A stretch of 64,000 nt of DNA from a virus (lineage: Duplodnaviria; Caudoviricetes): the IMG/VR virus record IMGVR_UViG_3300047551_002158; one strand, given 5' to 3'. The position numbers and the translations under genes are program-made. Below are positions 18,098-46,656 of the stretch, one piece after another. The stretch's first letter is position 1, and the number at the start of each line of letters is the position of its first letter. Below the pieces are notes generated by a model. That model saw only the letters and a program-made list of their open reading frames with translations, did not search any database and was not told the DNA's origin.

Positions 18098-18254
18098 TAT
18101 ACAACTTGAAAATTTAACTAAAAGTTTTGAATACTTTAAAGTTTCCACAGAAATTGATAATTTGACAGATTTAGATCAAATTCGTAACATTGCAAAATGT
18201 TATTATAAGTTATATTTAAAGCAACAAGAAGTTGTCTCCCAACTCAATCTATAA
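18084..18254 (+). CDS. 56-aa protein, NblA-like candidate (not in ORF track)
   Basis: ATG 18084 to TAA 18254: MNPDDIQLENLTKSFEYFKVSTEIDNLTDLDQIRNIAKCYYKLYLKQQEVVSQLNL. It fills the gap before gp13. The ORF is well supported; NblA similarity is by eye only. Confidence 0.6.
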   Translation: MNPDDIQLENLTKSFEYFKVSTEIDNLTDLDQIRNIAKCYYKLYLKQQEVVSQLNL

Positions 18255-20583: not shown

Positions 20584-21585
20584 ATGTTTGAGTATTTTTA
20601 TCACGAAATTTTAAGAAGGACCGTAATTGCTTTTGGTTCATTATTTAATGAAATCACCATCAAACATAAGAACAATGATGGAGTTGTTAAAAGTGTGCTT
20701 AAAGTTCCTCTTGCATACGGTCCTACACAAAAATTTCTTGCAAGATTAGAACAATCTCCCGATCTGAATAAACCAATTCAGATCACACTACCCAGAATGT
20801 CCTTTGAGTTTACTGGTTTAACATATGACCCAACAAGAAAGGCAACAACTACTCAAACATTTACTGCAAAGTCTGTAACTGACGGTAAGGAAACGAAGAA
20901 AGTATATCTTCCAGTTCCATATAATATGCAGTTTGAACTTAGTATTATGTGCAAATTAAATGATGATGCTTTGCAGATAGTTGAACAAATCTTACCCTAT
21001 TTTCAACCAGCATATACAATGACAGTTGAGTTGGTTGATGAAATTAACGAAAAGAGAGACATTCCTGTTGTTCTTGAGAACATTACTATGCAGGATGACT
21101 ATGAGGGAAATTTTACTACAAGAAGGGTTTTAATTTACACTCTAAGATTTACTGCAAAAACTTACCTGTTTGGTCCTGTTGCTTCTGCTACAAAGGATAT
21201 TATCAAAAAGACTACTATCAGTTATGTTGCTGGAGATACTACAAATACACCAACAAGAGAAATCGTTTATTCAGCAGAACCAAGAGCGATTCAAAATTAT
21301 ACTGGTATTGTTGTAACCAATTTAACAAAAGATATTACAACAGACGATATTCTAATACAAGTAAATGATGCAAGTTCAATATTACCAAATACTTACTTGG
21401 ATATTGAGGGTGAAGAAGTTTATGTAAAACTTGTTTCTGGAAATATTCTTACTGTAGAAAGAGGTAGAGATAACACAACAATAACATCACATTTATCTGG
21501 AGCACAAGTAAAATCGATTACTGCTGCGGATAATTTACTAATTGAAGACGGAGATGATTTTGGATTTAGTGGTTCTACAATTTGA
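20584..21585 (+). CDS. gp15: Tail sheath stabiliser/terminator gp15
   Basis: YFYHEILRRTVIAFGSLFN, VPLAYGP, LPRMSFE and EQILPYFQP motifs. Confidence 0.93.
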   Translation: MFEYFYHEILRRTVIAFGSLFNEITIKHKNNDGVVKSVLKVPLAYGPTQKFLARLEQSPDLNKPIQITLPRMSFEFTGLTYDPTRKATTTQTFTAKSVTDGKETKKVYLPVPYNMQFELSIMCKLNDDALQIVEQILPYFQPAYTMTVELVDEINEKRDIPVVLENITMQDDYEGNFTTRRVLIYTLRFTAKTYLFGPVASATKDIIKKTTISYVAGDTTNTPTREIVYSAEPRAIQNYTGIVVTNLTKDITTDDILIQVNDASSILPNTYLDIEGEEVYVKLVSGNILTVERGRDNTTITSHLSGAQVKSITAADNLLIEDGDDFGFSGSTI

Positions 21586-21590
21586 ATGAT

Positions 21591-22025
21591 ATGAAAATGA
21601 CAAAAAAGTTTGACGATTTAAACCAAACATTCAATGTAGATTCGGAGATAGTTCCTGTCGATAATAAAACCCCCACTGAAGCGATAGAAAAAATTGCTTC
21701 AACTGTTGATGATATTAAAAAAGATTATGATTATACGAGAGGTAATTTATATTCTCTCATTGAAAAGGGGCAGGAAGCAATTAACGGAATTCTTGAACTT
21801 GCACAAGAAAGTGAAATGCCCCGGGCATATGAAGTTGCAGGACAACTCATTAAAAATGTTGCGGATGCAACTGACAAATTAATGGATCTTCAAAAGAAAC
21901 TTAAGGATATTGAAGAAGAAAAAGTAGGAAAGGGACCAACAACTGTCAACAATGCACTTTTTGTTGGTTCTACCGCAGAATTGGCAAAACTTTTAAAGCA
22001 GCAAGCACAAAATGAAAACATTTAA
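21591..22025 (+). CDS. gp16: Terminase small subunit gp16
   Basis: DYDYTRGNLYSLIEKGQEA, PRAYEVAGQLIK and NNALFVGSTAELAKLLK; an ATG at 21591/21597 is more plausible than the TTG at 21582. Confidence 0.92.
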   Translation: MKMTKKFDDLNQTFNVDSEIVPVDNKTPTEAIEKIASTVDDIKKDYDYTRGNLYSLIEKGQEAINGILELAQESEMPRAYEVAGQLIKNVADATDKLMDLQKKLKDIEEEKVGKGPTTVNNALFVGSTAELAKLLKQQAQNENI

Positions 22026-22167
22026 ACAGTTTCAAGAAGATTGGACTAATAAATATAAAAAGAGTATTGATTGCTCAAATCCAAAAGGATTCTCTCAACG
22101 TGCTCATTGTGCGGGGAGAAGAAAAAGAGCAAAAGGTGAGCAGACTAAATCAAAACCAGTTGAGTAA
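22012..22167 (+). CDS. 51-aa basic protein with capsid-targeting-like N-terminus (not in ORF track)
   Basis: MKTFKQFQEDWTNKYKKSIDCSNPKGFSQRAHCAGRRKRAKGEQTKSKPVE; its TAA overlaps the next ATG (TAATG). Confidence 0.7.
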   Translation: MKTFKQFQEDWTNKYKKSIDCSNPKGFSQRAHCAGRRKRAKGEQTKSKPVE

Positions 22168-23906
22168 TGCCCAAGATCAAGTCACATAAAACAGTTGAGC
22201 AAATTGCAAGGAAGCATCGTCTTGATGTTTCTTTCATACAAAAGCAACTTGATATGGGAGAACCTATTGAGCACGAGCATACTCAAGACCACGAACTTGC
22301 AAGAGATATTGCCCTTCAACATCTTGATGAAATTCCAGATTATTATACCCGCTTGAAAAAAATGGAAGCAGATGCTAAAAAGCATCATAAAAAATTTAAA
22401 GATGTGAAAGAAGGCAATTTGCATAAATGGTTTCAAAGTAAATCTAAAGATGGAAAACCAGGTTGGGTAAATGTTGTTACTGGTGGAACTTGTGCAAGTG
22501 ATGAACCAGGAGAAGGAGTTCCCAAATGCGTTTCTTCTGAAAAAAGAGCAAGTATGACCCCAGCAGAAAGACGTGCCGCTGCAAGAAGAAAAAAAGCAGC
22601 AGATCCTGCTCAACAACAAAAAACAGGTGCAGCAAAACCAACTTACGTTCCTACCGACGAACCAAAAAAGAAAATGAAAGAAGAAATGGACTTACAAGAA
22701 GTAAAAGACAAAAAAGGAAAGGGAAGTGGTAAGAAAGACGCCTGTTATCATAAAGTAAAGTCACGTTATGATGTTTGGCCAAGTGCATATGCATCTGGAG
22801 CACTTGTCAAATGCCGTAGAGTTGGCGCTGATAATTGGGGAACTAAATCGGAGGAAACTACGCACGAAGAGGAAAGATATTGCCCATTATGTGATAAAAG
22901 AGAAACAAGATCCCAATGTTCTTATGGAGAAAAAGCCTGGGATAAAGTTTCAGTTAAAGATGAAGAGTATTCAATGGCACGTTCCGAACTCTCCACAATT
23001 GAAGATGCGGTCAAGAGATTAAAAAATAAAGTCGGAAAAGGCGAAGGAAATCTTGAAGCGTGGGTACAATCAAAAATTACCAAAGCAGCGGATTATATCG
23101 ATACTGCAGCAGATTATATTGCGAGTGGAGAAATGGAAGAACAAAAAATTGTTGATAAAATTATGGATGAAATGAAATGCTGGACAGGCTACAAAAAGAA
23201 GGGAACTCAAAAATTATTTGGTAAAAAATATAATCGTTGCGTAAAGAAGGAAGATGTGACAATTGAAGACTTAGATGGCAATACATTTGCTGAAGTGATT
23301 GATATTATCAAACCAGAACCAATAAAAGGTTTTAAATCTCAAGTAACAGAGGCAACTCGTCTTCAAGCACAAACAGGTAATGTAATTGCAGTTACTCTTT
23401 CTTGGAGAGGAAAGTACTATTCTCTAAAAATGTTTTTCCCTCAAGTTAAAACACCATCTCGCAAAGAAATAAACGATGAAATTCAAAAGGTTTATCCAGG
23501 TTCTGTAGTTGTTTATCATTCAGTATCAGAAATTCAACCAGGACAACCACTAATTCAAATGTGTGGTCCTCAGGGAGGAAGCTCTGCAAAACCTGGTCCA
23601 TCAAACAATTATGTAAAGACAATGGGAGAAGAAGTTGAAGTTGATGAAGATTGGCAAAAAGTTAATCGTCAAGATAAAACGGATGGATTAAGTCAAAAAG
23701 CAGTCAATGCTTATCGCAGAGAAAATCCAGGTTCAAATCTTCAAACTGCAGTAACTGAAAAAAATCCATCGGGTAAAAGAGCACAAAGAAGAAAAAATTT
23801 TTGTAGTCGTATGACCGGAATGAAGAAAAGATTAACATCTGCAGAGACTGCAAGAGATCCAGATAGCAGAATTAACAAAGCACTTCGTCGTTGGAACTGT
23901 AACTAA
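22167..23906 (+). CDS. 579-aa multi-module basic protein (putative internal-head polyprotein)
   Basis: A string of short Lys/Arg/Cys-rich modules separated by E-rich linkers, located between gp16 and gp17. Confidence 0.8.
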   Translation: MPKIKSHKTVEQIARKHRLDVSFIQKQLDMGEPIEHEHTQDHELARDIALQHLDEIPDYYTRLKKMEADAKKHHKKFKDVKEGNLHKWFQSKSKDGKPGWVNVVTGGTCASDEPGEGVPKCVSSEKRASMTPAERRAAARRKKAADPAQQQKTGAAKPTYVPTDEPKKKMKEEMDLQEVKDKKGKGSGKKDACYHKVKSRYDVWPSAYASGALVKCRRVGADNWGTKSEETTHEEERYCPLCDKRETRSQCSYGEKAWDKVSVKDEEYSMARSELSTIEDAVKRLKNKVGKGEGNLEAWVQSKITKAADYIDTAADYIASGEMEEQKIVDKIMDEMKCWTGYKKKGTQKLFGKKYNRCVKKEDVTIEDLDGNTFAEVIDIIKPEPIKGFKSQVTEATRLQAQTGNVIAVTLSWRGKYYSLKMFFPQVKTPSRKEINDEIQKVYPGSVVVYHSVSEIQPGQPLIQMCGPQGGSSAKPGPSNNYVKTMGEEVEVDEDWQKVNRQDKTDGLSQKAVNAYRRENPGSNLQTAVTEKNPSGKRAQRRKNFCSRMTGMKKRLTSAETARDPDSRINKALRRWNCN

Positions 23907-23922
23907 TTAATAGGACTTTATT

Positions 23923-25575
23923 ATGGCAAATAATGATGTATATCTCGGTAATCCGTTACTGAAGAAGGCGAATACTACTCACGAATTTACAGAAGAACAG
24001 GTTCTTGAGATTGCCAAGTGCATGAATGATCCTGTTTATTTTGCAAATAATTATGTAAAAATCGTTACTCTTGATCACGGTTTACAGACATTCAAACCAT
24101 ATCATTTTCAAGAAAAGTTAATTACGAATTTCCATAAACACAGATTTAATATCTGTAAGATGCCTCGTCAGACTGGTAAATCTACTACTGTAGTTGCATT
24201 TCTTTTACATTATGCAGTATTTAATGATAATGTAAATATTGGTATTCTGGCGAACAAGGCAGCAACAGCAAGAGAACTCTTAGATAGGTTGCAAACCGCA
24301 TATGAAAATCTACCAAAGTGGATGCAACAAGGAATTATTTCTTGGAACAAAGGTTCCTTGGAATTGGAAAATGGAAGTAAAATCTTGGCTGCTTCTACTT
24401 CTGCTTCTGCAGTTCGTGGTATGTCATTCAATATCTTATTTTTGGACGAATTTGCGTTCGTTCCAAATCACATTGCAGATTCATTCTTTGCATCAGTATA
24501 TCCAACAATTACTTCAGGTAAGCAAACAAAAGTAATTATCGTTTCTACGCCACACGGTATGAATCATTTCTACCGAATGTGGCACGATGCTGAAAAAGGT
24601 AAGAATGAGTATGTTTATACTGATGTACATTGGTCAGAGGTTCCTGGAAGAGATGAGGAGTGGAAAAAGCAAACAATTGCCAATACTAGCGAATCTCAGT
24701 TCAAAGTTGAGTTTGAATGTGAATTTTTAGGATCCGTTGATACTTTGATTGCACCAAGCAAACTTAGAACCCTCGTTTACGATGCCCCTAAGACCCGTAG
24801 TGCGGGTTTAGATGTATATGAGGACCCAATAGAGAATCATGATTATTTGATCACTGTAGACGTTGCTAGAGGCGTTGGAAACGACTATTCCGCATTTACT
24901 GTTGTAGACATTACTCAGTTTCCACACAAGGTCGTAGGAAAATATAGAAATAATGAAATTAAACCTATGCTTTTTCCAAGCATAATTCATGAAGCAGCAA
25001 CTGCATATAATAATGCATATATTCTTTGTGAGGTAAATGATGTTGGAGATCAAGTAGCAAGCATTCTTCAATATGATCTGGAATACAATAATCTTCTTAT
25101 GTGCTCAATGAGAGGAAGAGCGGGGCAAATTGTGGGTCAGGGATTTAGTGGGAAGAAAACTCAACTTGGAGTTAAGATGTCAAAGACTGTTAAAAAAGTT
25201 GGATGTCTAAACTTAAAGACAATGATTGAGGAAAATAAACTTTTTCTCAATGATTACGAAATTATTAGTGAGCTCACAACATTTATTCAAAAACACAATT
25301 CATTTGAAGCGGAAGAAGGTTGTAATGATGATCTTGCTATGTGCTTGGTCATTTATGCTTGGTTGGTAGCACAAGATTATTTTAAAGAACTCACAGATCA
25401 AGATGTTAGAAAACGTCTTTATGAAGAGCAAAAAAATCAAATAGAACAGGATATGTCTCCCTTCGGATTTATATCTGATGGATTGGATGAAAATAATTTT
25501 GTTGATGCCGATGGAGATAGATGGTTTGTTGATGAATATGGAGATCGTTCTTATATGTGGGATTATCTGTCATAA
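23923..25575 (+). CDS. gp17: Terminase large subunit gp17
   Basis: Walker A KMPRQTGKST, Walker B ILFLDEFAF, RNase H-like nuclease DVARGVGNDYS and NDDLAMCL. Confidence 0.97.
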   Translation: MANNDVYLGNPLLKKANTTHEFTEEQVLEIAKCMNDPVYFANNYVKIVTLDHGLQTFKPYHFQEKLITNFHKHRFNICKMPRQTGKSTTVVAFLLHYAVFNDNVNIGILANKAATARELLDRLQTAYENLPKWMQQGIISWNKGSLELENGSKILAASTSASAVRGMSFNILFLDEFAFVPNHIADSFFASVYPTITSGKQTKVIIVSTPHGMNHFYRMWHDAEKGKNEYVYTDVHWSEVPGRDEEWKKQTIANTSESQFKVEFECEFLGSVDTLIAPSKLRTLVYDAPKTRSAGLDVYEDPIENHDYLITVDVARGVGNDYSAFTVVDITQFPHKVVGKYRNNEIKPMLFPSIIHEAATAYNNAYILCEVNDVGDQVASILQYDLEYNNLLMCSMRGRAGQIVGQGFSGKKTQLGVKMSKTVKKVGCLNLKTMIEENKLFLNDYEIISELTTFIQKHNSFEAEEGCNDDLAMCLVIYAWLVAQDYFKELTDQDVRKRLYEEQKNQIEQDMSPFGFISDGLDENNFVDADGDRWFVDEYGDRSYMWDYLS

Positions 25576-25805
25576 TGGACTTAGATAAGCAAATTAAACT
25601 TGGGCATTTATTACTCTCAGATAGAAAATGTAGAATATGCGGCGAGATGAAAAATTTAATAGATGGATTTTATAGAACTCGTAAAGATAGAGGACCTGTA
25701 GCATCTTCTTATTCATATGAATGTAAAGAATGTACCGTAAAAAGAATTGTAAGAAATAGGAAAAAAGTTTTACTTTATAATGAGTGTGAATATCCTGACT
25801 GGTAA
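25575..25805 (+). CDS. Small CxxC-CxxC zinc-ribbon protein
   Basis: RKCRICGE...YECKEC; the ATG overlaps the gp17 stop (TAATG). Confidence 0.7.
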   Translation: MDLDKQIKLGHLLLSDRKCRICGEMKNLIDGFYRTRKDRGPVASSYSYECKECTVKRIVRNRKKVLLYNECEYPDW

Positions 25806-30467: not shown

Positions 30468-30629
30468 ATGGATGATCTTTTGGATATGATCGCTGCTGAT
30501 GAATCTCCATCACAAATCAGCGATAAAATTAAAGAACTACTTTTTGCAAAATCTGCGGAAAAAATTGATGAGTTTCGCCCAGTGGTTGCAAATTCATTGT
30601 TTAACAGAGAAACCGAAGAGGAAGAATGA
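30468..30629 (+). CDS. 53-aa acidic protein at the prohead-core (gp67-like) position (not in ORF track)
   Basis: MDDLLDMIAADESPSQISDKIKELLFAKSAEKIDEFRPVVANSLFNRETEEEE, preceded by TATAAATA at 30435-30442 and an AAGG RBS. The gp67 analogy is positional only. Confidence 0.7.
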   Translation: MDDLLDMIAADESPSQISDKIKELLFAKSAEKIDEFRPVVANSLFNRETEEEE

Positions 30630-30943
30630 AATCTTTTAAAGAATTCCTTTCAGAATCAGTAAATATTTCTGGAGATTTTAACGGAAATCTCTACATTAAT
30701 TCCCAATCAGAACCAAAACAGGTTGGGGAGGAGTATGTTGCTGATATTATTTGGGAAGGAAATTTTTATAGATTAGAGCTAATTTCAGAACTCGGAATTC
30801 CTTCAAAAAGAGATTTGGGTGAGCAATTGCAAAATCAGTATCCAGGAGCAGTTGTTCATCAAATCTATCCAATTACAGAAAAAAATTGCAATATTAAAAC
30901 CGTAAAAAGATATCACCCATCAAAATTGGAATGGATTGATTAA
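30626..30943 (+). CDS. 105-aa hypothetical with capsid-targeting-like N-terminus
   Basis: Starts MKSFKEFLSE; the C-terminal domain resembles a module of the 579-aa protein. Confidence 0.75.
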   Translation: MKSFKEFLSESVNISGDFNGNLYINSQSEPKQVGEEYVADIIWEGNFYRLELISELGIPSKRDLGEQLQNQYPGAVVHQIYPITEKNCNIKTVKRYHPSKLEWID

Positions 30944-32319: not shown

Positions 32320-32865
32320 ATGGCTCATAGACCAATAGGTGCTGGTATTTCATTAACAACAGGTGCAGCATCAGCGATGACAACATCCTTTACTGCACAG
32401 TCAAATGTGGTAAGAGTTGTTGCCGTTAGTGCTGGAGCATTTGTTGCAATTGGAACCAATCCAACAGCTACAACCGCAGATTATTATGTTCCTGCTGGCG
32501 GAACTGCAACTCTCGCTATCACAAAGGCATCAAATAGAGTTGTTGGAGTAACTACCGGAACGACGACAATCATTGATTGCCCAGAAGGAACTCAAGCACC
32601 TTTTGGTGTTGGTGATTTTGTAACTCTTTCAGGTTCACAATATCACAATTTCACTCACGCTGAGGTTGTTTCAGTAAATACAACTTCAAATGTTAATGGA
32701 TACTACCAAAAGAGGTTTACTGTAAATTATAACTCAAGTGGAATATTAACAGCATTCAGTTCTCCAGATGCATCGGTTTCACTATCATATAGGTTAGCGG
32801 CAAGAACTGAAGGTAGTGCTGGTACATTATATGCACAACAAGTACAAATCTCAGGACAAGCATAA
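32320..32865 (+). CDS. Conserved hypothetical (probable virion) protein upstream of gp21
   Basis: 181 aa, Thr/Ala/Gly-rich, preceded by TAAATA boxes; its stop overlaps the gp21 ATG. Confidence 0.7.
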   Translation: MAHRPIGAGISLTTGAASAMTTSFTAQSNVVRVVAVSAGAFVAIGTNPTATTADYYVPAGGTATLAITKASNRVVGVTTGTTTIIDCPEGTQAPFGVGDFVTLSGSQYHNFTHAEVVSVNTTSNVNGYYQKRFTVNYNSSGILTAFSSPDASVSLSYRLAARTEGSAGTLYAQQVQISGQA

Positions 32866-33512
32866 TGAAACTTATCAGAGAAGAGATCGAAAAAGTAGAA
32901 GTTATTACCGAAGGAAAAGGTAGTAACGCAAAACTTTATATCAAAGGACCATTTCTTCAAGCAGAATGCGTCAATAGAAATGGAAGGCTTTATCCTCTTT
33001 CAATTATGGAGAGAGAAGTAAAGCGTTATACTGAGAGTTATGTAAACAAAGGTCGTGCTCTGGGAGAACTTGGTCATCCAGATGGACCTACTGTTAATCT
33101 GGATAGAGTTTCTCATAAGATTGTTGAACTTCATCAAGAAGGAAATAACTTTATTGGTAAAGCACAGATCTTATCTACTCCAATGGGTAAGATTGCAGAA
33201 TCTCTTCTTAAGGATGGAGTTTCTCTCGGTGTTTCTTCTCGTGGCATTGGTTCTCTGAGAGAAAACCAAAAAGGTTACAGAGAAGTTGGCGAAGACTTTA
33301 TGCTTGCAACTGCTGCTGATATTGTAGCAGATCCTTCAGCACCCGATGCTTTTGTTCAGGGAATTATGGAAGGAGTTGAATGGGTTTGGAATAATGGTAT
33401 TCTTGAGCAAAAAGTTTCAAAATTTGAGAAGAGAGTTAATACTTTAGTTGATCAAGGTATTCTCGAAGAATACAAGTTATCTTTATTCAATGAGTTCTTA
33501 AACTCATTGTAA
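32865..33512 (+). CDS. gp21: Prohead protease gp21
   Basis: NRNGRLYP, ALGELGHP, LGVSSRGIGS and DIVADPSAPDAFV. Confidence 0.97.
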   Translation: MKLIREEIEKVEVITEGKGSNAKLYIKGPFLQAECVNRNGRLYPLSIMEREVKRYTESYVNKGRALGELGHPDGPTVNLDRVSHKIVELHQEGNNFIGKAQILSTPMGKIAESLLKDGVSLGVSSRGIGSLRENQKGYREVGEDFMLATAADIVADPSAPDAFVQGIMEGVEWVWNNGILEQKVSKFEKRVNTLVDQGILEEYKLSLFNEFLNSL

Positions 33513-34774: not shown

Positions 34775-36196
34775 ATGTTCCATTCAGAACAATTGCAGGA
34801 AAAGTGGGCACCTCTCCTCAACTATGAGGGTCTTGATTCAATCAAAGATTCACATCGTAGAGCTGTAACCGCTGTCCTGCTCGAAAACCAAGAAAAATTC
34901 TTAAGAGAGCAATCTTCTTTCGAGACCTCAGGTTCGTTCCTGACCGAAGCTCCAACAATGACCACCAACTCCGGCGCTAATGCTGGTTTCGGAGGTCTTG
35001 CTTCAGCTAGCGGTCCTACCGCAGGTTTCGACCCCGTTCTGATCTCACTGATCAGACGTTCAATGCCTAACCTGATCGCCTATGATATTGCAGGCGTTCA
35101 ACCAATGAGTGGTCCTACTGGACTCATCTTCGCAATGCGTTCACGCTACAACAACCAGAGTGGTGCAGAAACCTTCTACAACGAAGTAGATTCTTCCTGG
35201 TCAGGTCAACCATTCGGTCGTGATAATTCGGATGGTTTCACCGATACCGCTGCTGGTATGGGTACTACTGCTCAGAGTGGTAGCAATCCATCAGTTCTGA
35301 ATCCAGTTGGCACTGCCGCTTCAACTGGTTATAACGTTGGTCAAGGTATGCGTACCGATCAGGCAGAACTGCTTGATAGTGGTGCTGATGCATTCAACCA
35401 GATGGCATTCTCGATCGAGAAGGTCACCGTTACTGCTAAGAGCCGTGCTCTGAAGGCAGAATACAGCCTTGAGCTTGCTCAGGACCTGAAGGCAATCCAT
35501 GGTCTGAACGCTGAAGCGGAACTCGCAAACATTCTCTCAACTGAGATTCTTGCCGAGATCAACCGCGAAGTTATCAGAACCATCTATAAGGTTGCTGAAC
35601 AGGGTGCTGTACAGAACGTTGCAACTCCTGGTATCTTCGACCTCGACGTTGACTCCAATGGTCGTTGGTCAGTTGAGAAGTTCAAGGGTCTTCTGTTCCA
35701 GATTGAGCGTGATGCTAACGCTATCGCTCAGAGAACTCGTCGTGGAAAGGGCAACATCATCCTTTGCTCCGCTGACGTTGCTTCAGCACTGACAATGGCT
35801 GGTGTTCTTGATTACACCCCTGCTCTGAACGCTAACCTCCAGGTAGACGATACCGGCAACACCTTTGCTGGTACTCTGATGGGCAAATTCCGCGTCTACA
35901 TTGACCCATATGCTGCTAACCTGACTTCAGGTAATGCAACTCCAGGTAACCAGTACTATGTTGTTGGTTATAAGGGTTCTTCACCTTATGACGCTGGACT
36001 CTTCTATTGTCCTTATGTTCCTCTCCAAATGGTACGTGCCGTTGGCGAGAACAGCTTCCAGCCCAAGATCGGATTTAAGACCCGTTATGGAATGGTTGCA
36101 AACCCATTCGCTGAGGGTACTACTCAGGGTCTCGGTGCTCTTACGATCAATGCTAACCGCTACTATCGTAGAGTTGCTGTTAAGAACCTTATGTGA
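34775..36196 (+). CDS. gp23: Major capsid protein gp23
   Basis: GVQPMSGPTGLIFAMRSRY, KSRALKAEYSLELAQDLKAIHGL and FYCPYVPL; the maturation-site analogue SFLTE|A is present. Confidence 0.99.
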   Translation: MFHSEQLQEKWAPLLNYEGLDSIKDSHRRAVTAVLLENQEKFLREQSSFETSGSFLTEAPTMTTNSGANAGFGGLASASGPTAGFDPVLISLIRRSMPNLIAYDIAGVQPMSGPTGLIFAMRSRYNNQSGAETFYNEVDSSWSGQPFGRDNSDGFTDTAAGMGTTAQSGSNPSVLNPVGTAASTGYNVGQGMRTDQAELLDSGADAFNQMAFSIEKVTVTAKSRALKAEYSLELAQDLKAIHGLNAEAELANILSTEILAEINREVIRTIYKVAEQGAVQNVATPGIFDLDVDSNGRWSVEKFKGLLFQIERDANAIAQRTRRGKGNIILCSADVASALTMAGVLDYTPALNANLQVDDTGNTFAGTLMGKFRVYIDPYAANLTSGNATPGNQYYVVGYKGSSPYDAGLFYCPYVPLQMVRAVGENSFQPKIGFKTRYGMVANPFAEGTTQGLGALTINANRYYRRVAVKNLM

Positions 36197-45783: not shown

Positions 45784-46656
45784 ATGATAACTTATCAAGA
45801 ATTTATTACCGAAATCAAAAGGTATCGTCTCCGTCGTTCTGGCGGAGACCCTTTTACGCATTATAGTGATGGTAAGCAAAAACCACTGGATTTATCTGCT
45901 ATTCACGCTGCAGGTAATGCTGATGCGAAAGCTTCTGTAGGATATAAAGAAAAACGCTTAAAGCAATACAGAAGACAAGAAACTGTGAGAAGGATGGATG
46001 CTGCTGGTAAGAAACTTGGATTGCCTGAAGAGAATGTTCAAGAGTTATTCATTACAAGAAAATCTCCTGAAGAGAGAGCAGACGCAAAAAGAAAGAAACA
46101 AGTAGAAACACTTATTCGTTTAATGAAGCACGCAAAGGACCCTTCTGCTGATGTTGCTAAAACCAAAAAGGAAGATTATGATTTAAGTGAAACTTCCCTT
46201 ACTCGTGTAATGAGTAAGTCAAAAAAAGGTGGTATGGCGATTATGTCTGCTCAAAGAGGAGATAAATCAAAGGCAGAAAACAAAGAACGCTCAAAGCAAC
46301 TTGAGCGTGATGTAAGAGGTGCTGGACTTCCTGGACCTACAAAAGTTGCTGGTAGATACACTGAAAATCCAGGAACACCTGATGAGAAAAAGGTAGGAGA
46401 GAAATCTCATATTATTACTCCAGGTAAAAAAGGCAAAAGGAAGTTTAAGAAAGCGATTGAAAAACTTGGTAAAAAATACAATCAAGATTCAGTTTTAATC
46501 CAACGCAAACCTGGTGGAAGTTCAACTCTTAAAGGAACTTCCAAAACATCTTGGCCTGGTCAAGGTAAAAATGTTAAAATAGGTTCTATGAAACCAGGAA
46601 GAACTGGCGAATTTGATACTAAAGTTAAAAACAAAACATTTACTGTTGAGCATTAA
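45784..46656 (+). CDS. Basic late protein with T4 capsid-targeting-like N-terminus
   Basis: The ATG at 45784 gives MITYQEFITE; late promoter ATAAATA at 45754-45760; C-terminal AIMSAQRG...EN..R...G.Y.E...KKYNQDSVL domain. Confidence 0.8.
   Translation: MITYQEFITEIKRYRLRRSGGDPFTHYSDGKQKPLDLSAIHAAGNADAKASVGYKEKRLKQYRRQETVRRMDAAGKKLGLPEENVQELFITRKSPEERADAKRKKQVETLIRLMKHAKDPSADVAKTKKEDYDLSETSLTRVMSKSKKGGMAIMSAQRGDKSKAENKERSKQLERDVRGAGLPGPTKVAGRYTENPGTPDEKKVGEKSHIITPGKKGKRKFKKAIEKLGKKYNQDSVLIQRKPGGSSTLKGTSKTSWPGQGKNVKIGSMKPGRTGEFDTKVKNKTFTVEH

Follow-up and report, generated by a model that had tools for sequence, protein, structure and literature searches.

The window analysed here is a stretch of 64,000 nucleotides from the virus record IMGVR_UViG_3300047551_002158 (IMG/VR; Duplodnaviria, Caudoviricetes), part of a T4-like cyanomyovirus, and it encodes a protein of 579 amino acids (aa) between the genes for the small (gp16) and large (gp17) terminase subunits. 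We are highly confident that this protein (P0001) is a modular virion protein. The evidence also leans, if less decisively, towards the view that the protein and a 51-aa open reading frame (ORF) preceding it (P0002) are late-made cargo of the phage head, in the form of a string of about eight very small, mostly basic modules that fold independently and have conserved Cys pairs. That the prohead protease gp21 cuts at least two junctions of the 579-aa protein in the head is, in our estimate, somewhat better than an even chance. A preliminary description based on the letters of the window had interpreted the protein as a polyprotein of small basic modules released at prohead-protease sites, and this interpretation is, taken as a whole, partly supported.

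Module composition, shuffling and virion presence

The ORF at 22167-23906 on the + strand is open for 579 codons and encodes a 65.6-kDa protein with a predicted pI of 9.3. It contains 110 Lys and Arg residues, 48 Glu (8.3%) and 12 Cys, the latter spread 2+2+3+2+1+2 over the modules, in agreement with the basic Cys-pair modules described previously. The seven junction strings quoted in the preliminary description, each ending in Glu, were all found in the translation, at E82, E178, E235/236, E267, E335, E395 and E494. An AlphaFold2 model of the protein built with 96 homologues has no global fold, with a predicted template modelling score (pTM) of 0.27. Confident blocks were observed at approximately aa 1-76, 89-150, 189-227, 233-262, 266-335, 338-362, 400-460 and 494-579, and linkers with a predicted local distance difference test score (pLDDT) below 50 at aa 77-88, 151-188, 228-232, 363-366, 374-399 and 461-493. 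These linkers contain E82, E172/178, E395 and E488, and E494 is located one residue past the last linker; all seven quoted junctions sit at block/linker boundaries of the model. The low pTM and the roughly eight small blocks between low-confidence linkers indicate a modular protein rather than a single compact fold, as had been proposed.

Pfam matched only the terminal blocks, DUF5661 (PF18905, E = 2e-13) and DUF6321 (PF19846, E = 1.3e-14), both above the curated cut-offs. The whole protein matched PHROG 727 (E = 2e-97) and PHROG 3477 (E = 1.5e-86), which are both families without an assigned function. A Foldseek search of the PDB with the full model gave no match at E <= 0.001. When folded alone, DUF6321 was predicted as a small helical domain (pLDDT 77.9, pTM 0.61), for which VIA-align against 48,161 chains found no relative among solved structures (best Z 2.6), BFVD returned family members only, and an ESM Atlas feature search gave a single unnamed viral cluster at 0.82, which provided no lead. 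No enzyme family or known fold was matched by the modules in Pfam, Foldseek, BFVD or VIA-align.

The best protein match of the 579-aa protein is from the freshwater phage S-SRM01, the closest cultured relative, with 70% identity over 73% of the query. The family is very large, with more than 8000 near-length homologues in one search, which reached its scoring limit, and 10,078 representatives of 50%-identity clusters in a second, and it occurs in about 510 phage records, chiefly of Synechococcus and Prochlorococcus myoviruses. It is the cluster T4-GC119 of Sullivan et al. 2010, which has the same domains, the same place at gp16/gp17 and a variable gene size, from 276 to 2985 nucleotides, and which is absent from S-PM2 (PMC3037559 supplement). 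When 14 close homologues were aligned, every length difference turned out to be a whole module inserted at a linker. Six homologues have insertions behind E82, which consist of an unrelated module, an additional RYCP module or, once, a repeat of module 2; near E172, the inserted piece was the module of the 51-aa ORF. Further insertions were a piece of about 55 residues after E325 (in several homologues), another piece after the CW module, and a second helical module at the N-terminus. In phages S-SCSM1 and S-B43, these modules are arranged differently along the chain, and simple anchor motifs distinguished 92 architectures among 150 representatives, some of which are fragmentary proteins. Module boundaries in the homologues coincide with the Glu-ending linkers through insertions, duplications and reordering, and the expectation of shuffling at these linkers was thereby confirmed.

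The individual modules (coordinates in Table 1) show the same mobility. The pLDDT of module 1 is 72-90 over aa 1-76 and below 50 over aa 77-88. Module 2 is matched by PHROG 12753 and 3477 at aa 82-173 and is duplicated in the homologue P0109. In module 3, C193 and C216 are invariant, and a related stand-alone form exists behind a leader resembling the T4 capsid-targeting sequence (CTS) (P0396, P0479). Module 4 has a second copy elsewhere in P0060, P0120 and P0090 and occupies a different place in S-SCSM1 and S-B43. Module 5, with AlphaFold2 helices at aa 266-289, 298-319 and 328-335, has an additional N-terminal copy in P0031. The strands of module 6 lie within aa 342-360, followed by the stretch with pLDDT below 50 at aa 374-399, and stand-alone CW modules were found behind CTS-like leaders. 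Module 7, with pLDDT of 79-92 over aa 400-460 and below 50 over aa 461-493, has a weak match to PHROG 1742 and is paralogous to the ORF at 30626-30943 (BLASTP E = 2e-7). In S-SCSM1 (L002:4362-4682) and S-B43 (L003:4280-4597), the mosaic gene is directly followed by a leader-bearing paralogue of module 7; in this window, this paralogue is relocated to just after the portal gene.

The 51-aa ORF had been described as having the same design as the 579-aa protein, and its motif FQE↓DW..C..HC is indeed present (the arrow marks a junction or cleavage site). It consists of a 9-10 residue leader, MKTFKQFQE↓D, and a 42-aa basic module with two Cys residues and a predicted pI of 10.1. This module shares 69% identity (E = 2e-18) with a module inside the mosaic homologue P0053, and it also makes up the N-terminus of the S-SRM01 homologue. 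The 51-aa ORF is a real coding sequence and one more module of the same set. Its module weakly resembles the opening of DUF6321 (aa 489-520; E-DW...G-[FL]-SQ-[RK]-A; BLASTP E = 0.041 against P0053), and the two may be distantly related. A likeness by eye between the tail of T4 gp68 and DUF6321 was not significant (BLASTP E = 1.2).

Family members have been found in virions. S-SM1 virions yielded 13 peptides of T4-GC119, for which Sullivan et al. 2010 give the label 'Structural protein' (PMC3037559 supplement). In S-SCSM1, ORF29 (QFG06285) is annotated as 'virion protein', and the paper of record reports a 45-protein virion proteome by mass spectrometry (MS); its supplement contained neither the term 'peptide' nor an entry for ORF29 in our search, and the S-SM1 table consists of counts alone. 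The MS data from S-SM1 and S-SCSM1 give neither the size of the protein nor its place in the particle.

Junction motifs, the prohead protease and leaders

Within the 579-aa protein alone, Glu at the boundaries was not significant, as 8.3% of all residues are Glu. Because this composition made the test uninformative, we replaced it with a family-wide test of the Glu just upstream of five module anchors in the 50%-identity cluster representatives. A Leu, Ile, Val, Met or Phe residue was found at P3 for 209 of 264 junction Glu (79%), compared with a background of 24.8% for all Glu, although the sequences are related to one another and the counts overstate their independence. Among 119 close homologues, V/I80-x-E82 and V/I/M393-x-E395 were conserved in 100%, the latter followed by A396 in 91%. 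Glu was present in 97% at M170-x-E172, position 176 was V/L/I in 91% with E178 also in 91%, and M/I333-D-E335 was found in 89%. Position 492 was hydrophobic (I/F/V/L) in 99% and E494 was present in 100% (E494↓D); M323-x-E325 and M486-G-E488 were also kept. In the linkers of these homologues, Glu is thus kept, P3 varies among hydrophobic residues and P2 is free. The conserved hydrophobic-x-Glu motif is restricted to E82, E172/178, E325/335, E395 and E488/494. A strict L/I-x-E occurs in a linker only at E178 (and at E55 within a folded domain), with V/M/F-x-E at E82, E172, E325, E335, E395, E488 and E494. The stretch 374-399 is predicted to be disordered, yet strongly conserved, which suits a linear recognition motif.

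The presumed processing enzyme is encoded in the same window. Its gp21 shares 44% identity with T4 gp21 in the catalytic core (E = 5e-36), where the ELxHP and GVSSRG stretches align, and matches PDB entry 5JBL (E = 4.6e-27). The motif of T4 gp21 is L/I-x-E (PMC9026906), and the gp23 site GSFLTE↓A in the window is the same as that of T4, providing an internal reference for gp21 specificity in this phage. Given this identity and the identical gp23 site, it is fair to infer that the gp21 of the window has T4-like specificity. Cuts at E82, E178, E335, E395 and E494 would yield pieces of 9.9, 10.5, 17.7, 6.9, 10.9 and 9.8 kDa. The predicted pieces are small and several are very basic, with conserved Cys residues in all except the DUF5661 piece.

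In T4, the CTS directs proteins into the head interior and is removed by gp21 at L/I-x-E, and an Asp at the final residue of the leader prevents this processing (PMC9026906). The leaders in the T4 record are MKTYQEFIAE↓A for ipII and ipIII and MKTFKEF...ITE↓A for ipI. Three ORFs of the window have T4-like starts, namely the 51-aa ORF, ORF 30626-30943 and ORF 45784-46656, and the MKTFKQFQE of the 51-aa ORF resembles the MKTFKEF... of ipI. We used the ten-residue pattern M-x-x-[FLY]-x-x-[FYL]-x-x-E to search for such leaders. Among short metagenomic DUF6321 proteins, 71 of 114 (62%) begin with this pattern, and 39 of these 71 have the DW opening of the module directly after the leader. The other 43 are mostly gene calls starting inside the module, or have near-variants of the leader. 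As a control, the pattern was present in 2 of the 132 ORFs of the window. In the fusion protein, DW follows V-D-E494, which matches the leader/module joint of stand-alone DUF6321. Natural leaders of stand-alone forms have Val or Met at P3 in some cases, and leaders also precede CW, DACY-like and GW modules.

Two podovirus DUF6321 genes, from P-SCSP1c and Skadi-1, have no leader, and the DUF6321 fold therefore does not include it. In the T7-like Prochlorococcus podovirus P-SCSP1c (L007:3459-3877), the leaderless gene encodes 84 aa, is accompanied by a second tiny, extremely basic ORF and is located between the major capsid and tail tubular genes. An association of DUF6321 with virions may therefore extend to phages of another architecture. 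A leader-bearing stand-alone DUF6321 gene on a metagenomic contig (L009) lies in a neighbourhood of cyanomyovirus type, as judged from PHROG matches, with a PHROG 1645 virion protein as one neighbour and, as another, a cytidylyltransferase homologue that has a similar leader (L009:3791-6004, beginning MKFKDFLIKE). T4-GC190, annotated as a cytidylyltransferase and perhaps related to the L009 homologue, was detected with 25 peptides in S-SM1 virions (PMC3037559 supplement). The 290-aa ORF at 45784-46656 (+) starts with MITYQEFITE, 8/10 identical to the leader of T4 ipII and ipIII, and contains a domain of the S-adenosylmethionine lyase family (PF23780, E = 5.6e-14), making its product a candidate for a head-packaged anti-restriction enzyme.

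Proposed processed head cargo and its alternatives

We infer the location in the head, the cuts and the action of the pieces, which could proceed as follows. The chain would be built into the prohead core, where gp21 would cut after the Glu of hydrophobic-x-Glu in the flexible linkers, with E82, E172/E178, E325/E335, E395 and E488/E494 as the best sites. Pieces of about 7-18 kDa would be released and kept with the packaged DNA, and may exit with it at infection, like the T4 internal proteins. The 51-aa ORF product would enter by means of its own T4-type capsid-targeting leader, whose removal would leave the 42-aa basic peptide. Neutralisation of DNA charge and host take-over or anti-defence would be the two obvious roles for the pieces; DNA charge neutralisation and early action in the host would both accord with the T4 internal proteins.

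Several observations weigh against the processed-cargo reading. The T4-GC119 homologue was not detected in Syn9 virions (PMC3037559 supplement), and the published MS on family members is at the protein level, with no cleavage product observed. The relatedness of the sequences behind the family-wide counts has been mentioned above. The P3 residues are mostly V/M/F and not the L/I of T4 type, and two junctions, HEE↓E before RYCP and KDEE↓Y before the helical module, have no hydrophobic P3 in this protein. Because of these two junctions, we consider 4-6 cuts more likely than the 7-8 released peptides originally envisaged: about eight modules with junctions were confirmed, but two of the seven junctions lack the motif. 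The hydrophobic-x-Glu motif itself could be a relic of the leaders of fused genes or part of recombination joints. Finally, the 579-aa protein starts with MPKIKSHK, and the leader pattern was found in 0 of 269 long homologues. The long form must therefore reach the head by a route other than T4 loading; entry through internal leader-like linkers or by binding to the core is speculation.

The best-surviving alternative, which we regard as doubtful, is that the protein is packaged but remains whole or is cut once, and that the linkers are leader relics, DNA-level recombination joints or both. The lack of an N-terminal leader on the long forms and the majority of P3 residues that are not L/I are in keeping with this explanation, as is the lack of size information from the S-SM1 and S-SCSM1 MS. 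An identical linker text is also found before different modules, as in the ..MDLQE-VKDKPG.. joint of P0109, which fits recombination within linkers. However, an invariant Glu together with a hydrophobic P3 of changing identity and a drifting P2 suggests selection on the peptide and not on DNA identity, and linker 374-399 is highly conserved despite its predicted disorder. Moreover, a 65-kDa Glu-rich flexible string would have to share the prohead with an active Glu-specific protease.

A bolder version of the processed-cargo reading, which we think unlikely in its full form, is a combinatorial polyprotein of rapidly reshuffled mini-proteins, stabilised by disulfides or metals, that enters the prohead untagged and is cut by the protease into injected effectors. 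Internal linkers of CTS-like character, for example K-[IL]-V-D-K-I-x-x-E or I-K-G-F-K-S-Q-V-x-E, would provide the entry route. Delivered together with the DNA, the effectors would counteract host defences or bring the cell under phage control, and module exchange at cleavage linkers would be a way for phages to swap injected weaponry.

It is less probable still that the protein has a structural or assembly role elsewhere than inside the head, as a part of the neck or tail, a surface decoration or a packaging accessory, with the Cys-pair modules as disulfide- or metal-stabilised binding domains and the acidic stretches as plain flexible linkers. The gene is indeed located among neck and terminase genes, conserved Cys pairs suit oxidising seawater, the literature label is simply 'structural protein', and the DUF6321 gene of P-SCSP1c lies between capsid and tail-tube genes. 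Nevertheless, the same modules are found behind T4-type capsid-targeting leaders, which are a head-interior signal in T4, and a gene size of 276-2985 nucleotides with variable module order is unlike a fixed structural part. The absence of a fold match to a known tail, neck or decoration protein points weakly in the same direction. Very improbable is a late protein with a DNA-binding or regulatory role that adheres to particles while they are purified and is not a true virion component: its strongly basic character (pI 9.3; pI 11 for DUF6321) and the lack of detection in Syn9 virions would fit, but two independent proteomes of CsCl-purified virions include family members (13 peptides in S-SM1), stand-alone copies carry leaders, and the gene lies within the late structural operon.

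Locus, related systems and significance

The DNA of the window is about 77% identical to the Synechococcus phages S-SCSM1, Bellamy and S-SM2, and its genes follow the order of the T4 late region, with neck genes, gp16, gp17, gp18, gp19, the gp20 portal, gp21, gp22 and gp23. The 51-aa ORF overlaps gp16 at its stop codon and the 579-aa ORF at its start (TAATG). The preliminary description noted that the 579-aa gene separates gp16 from gp17. This position was confirmed, but it is no peculiarity of this phage, being the normal cyanomyovirus place of T4-GC119; the family member of S-SM2 is at 91801-93927, just before gp17, and coincides with the tblastn match. In T4, the coordinates show that the terminase genes overlap each other (PMC3037559 supplement). 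A promoter scan found no promoter consensus of its own for the 579-aa gene, which lies inside the gp13-gp17 run behind TATAAATA at 18250. No further TATAAATA was found on the + strand between 18250 and 30435, and the idea of a dedicated late promoter for the gene was rejected; the count of the motif in the window was not above chance.

Table 1. Coordinates of the modules, the ORF pair and the related or flanking genes in the window.
Feature	Position	Strand	Description
gp16 small terminase	21582-22025		Flanks the ORF pair (51-aa and 579-aa) on the 5' side
51-aa ORF (P0002)	22012-22167	+	CTS-like leader and basic 2-Cys module
579-aa mosaic protein (P0001)	22167-23906	+	Family T4-GC119 / PHROG 727 and 3477
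Module 1	22167-22412	+	aa 1-82; helical DUF5661 and basic helix; ends V-K-E82
Module 2	22413-22700	+	aa 83-178; LHxWF..GWV..C..KC minidomain and basic tail; M-K-E172 and L-Q-E178 in linker
Module 3	22701-22862	+	aa 179-232; basic spacer and helical DACYHKV..PSAYASG..KC minidomain, 2 Cys
Module 4	22863-22961	+	aa 233-265; RYCPxC..C knuckle-like minidomain, 3 Cys
Module 5	22962-23171	+	aa 266-335; helical hairpin EYSMARSEL..AADYID, M-E-E325, CTS-like linker ending M-D-E335
Module 6	23172-23351	+	aa 336-395; CWxGY..C beta hairpin, TIEDxxGNTF, conserved disordered linker ending V-T-E395↓A
Module 7	23352-23648	+	aa 396-494; beta-beta-alpha-beta WRGKYY..YPG, Gly/Pro linker ending V-D-E494↓D
Module 8 and stop codon	23649-23906	+	aa 495-579; DUF6321, helical, net charge +13, pI 11, 2 invariant Cys
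gp17 large terminase	23923-25575		Flanks the ORF pair on the 3' side
Stand-alone 105-aa paralogue of module 7	30626-30943	+	T4 CTS-like leader MKSFKEFLSE↓S
gp21 prohead protease	32865-33512	+	PHROG 207, E = 4.5e-80; presumed processing enzyme
gp23 major capsid protein	34775-36196	+	T4 maturation site GSFLTE↓A at E58

Two further genes of the neighbourhood were observed. An 82-aa endonuclease VII-like ORF at 25557-25805 (+; PHROG 4723, E = 1.8e-35) overlaps the final codons of gp17, and such a gene is also found behind gp17 in S-SCSM1, Bellamy and S-SM2. Directly upstream of gp21, at 32320-32865 (+), lies a gene for a Glu-poor (3 Glu) DUF7243 protein of 181 aa without a PHROG match. The place immediately before gene 21 in T4 is occupied by the prohead core genes 67 and 68.

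Among known systems, that of the T4 internal proteins, CTS and gp21 is nearest. IPI, IPII and IPIII (and Alt) are, like the proteins here, small basic proteins made late. They have the same 10-residue leader pattern ending in hydrophobic-x-Glu (MKTYQEFIAE compared with MKTFKQFQE, MKSFKEFLSE and the MKTLKTFITE type), and T4 shares the protease family and the gp23 site with this phage. The T4 internal proteins of about 8-20 kDa are also similar in size to the fragments of 7-18 kDa predicted here. Unlike in T4, the 579-aa protein has no N-terminal leader and often has V, M or F at P3, and its eight modules in one chain with internal sites are an arrangement undescribed for internal proteins; no internal protein family was found among the Pfam (E up to 1) or PHROG (E up to 0.1) matches. 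In T4 gp22, gp67 and gp68, one precursor undergoes several L/I-x-E cuts in the prohead and small fragments are kept (PMC9026906), whereas these are scaffold parts of fixed sequence without folded mini-domains.

Two other systems invite comparison. In the giant phages phiKZ, 201phi2-1 and SPN3US, many head-internal proteins are processed after Glu by a gp21-like protease, propeptides are thought to target the cargo, and some proteins have extra internal sites (PMC5694885). Their motif, however, is A/S/G-x-E, the propeptides exceed 100 residues, and neither homology nor shuffled chains of mini-modules are found. Polyvalent proteins (Iyer, Burroughs, Anand, de Souza, Aravind 2017, PMC5512222) are likewise multi-domain, fast-shuffling and encoded beside packaging and head genes, and their predicted fate is packaging, delivery and, in some cases, release by proteolysis. 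In contrast to their large, enzymatic effector domains, often with a peptidase domain of their own (PMC5512222), the 579-aa protein has modules of 25-90 residues without an enzyme family match (two DUFs in Pfam), and the head-maturation enzyme is the presumed protease.

In the literature, no function or mechanism has been assigned to T4-GC119. Our literature search retrieved no paper naming DUF6321 or DUF5661, 'capsid targeting sequence' and cyanophage occurred together only in a T4 review that mentions cyanophages once, and the polyprotein or cargo reading of T4-GC119 was not proposed in the papers searched. What would be new is that mini-modules with internal sites are joined in one chain, that the long form has no N-terminal tag and that the family is so large in cyanophages. 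T4-GC119 is among the commonest unexplained genes of ocean and freshwater cyanomyoviruses and has been known only as a 'structural protein' since 2010. If the processed-cargo reading is true, the family would gain a mechanism, T4-type loading combined with Glu-specific cutting, and the T4 internal-protein system would be extended to cyanophages in polyprotein form. It would also point to a large pool of small proteins that probably enter Prochlorococcus and Synechococcus cells as soon as infection begins.

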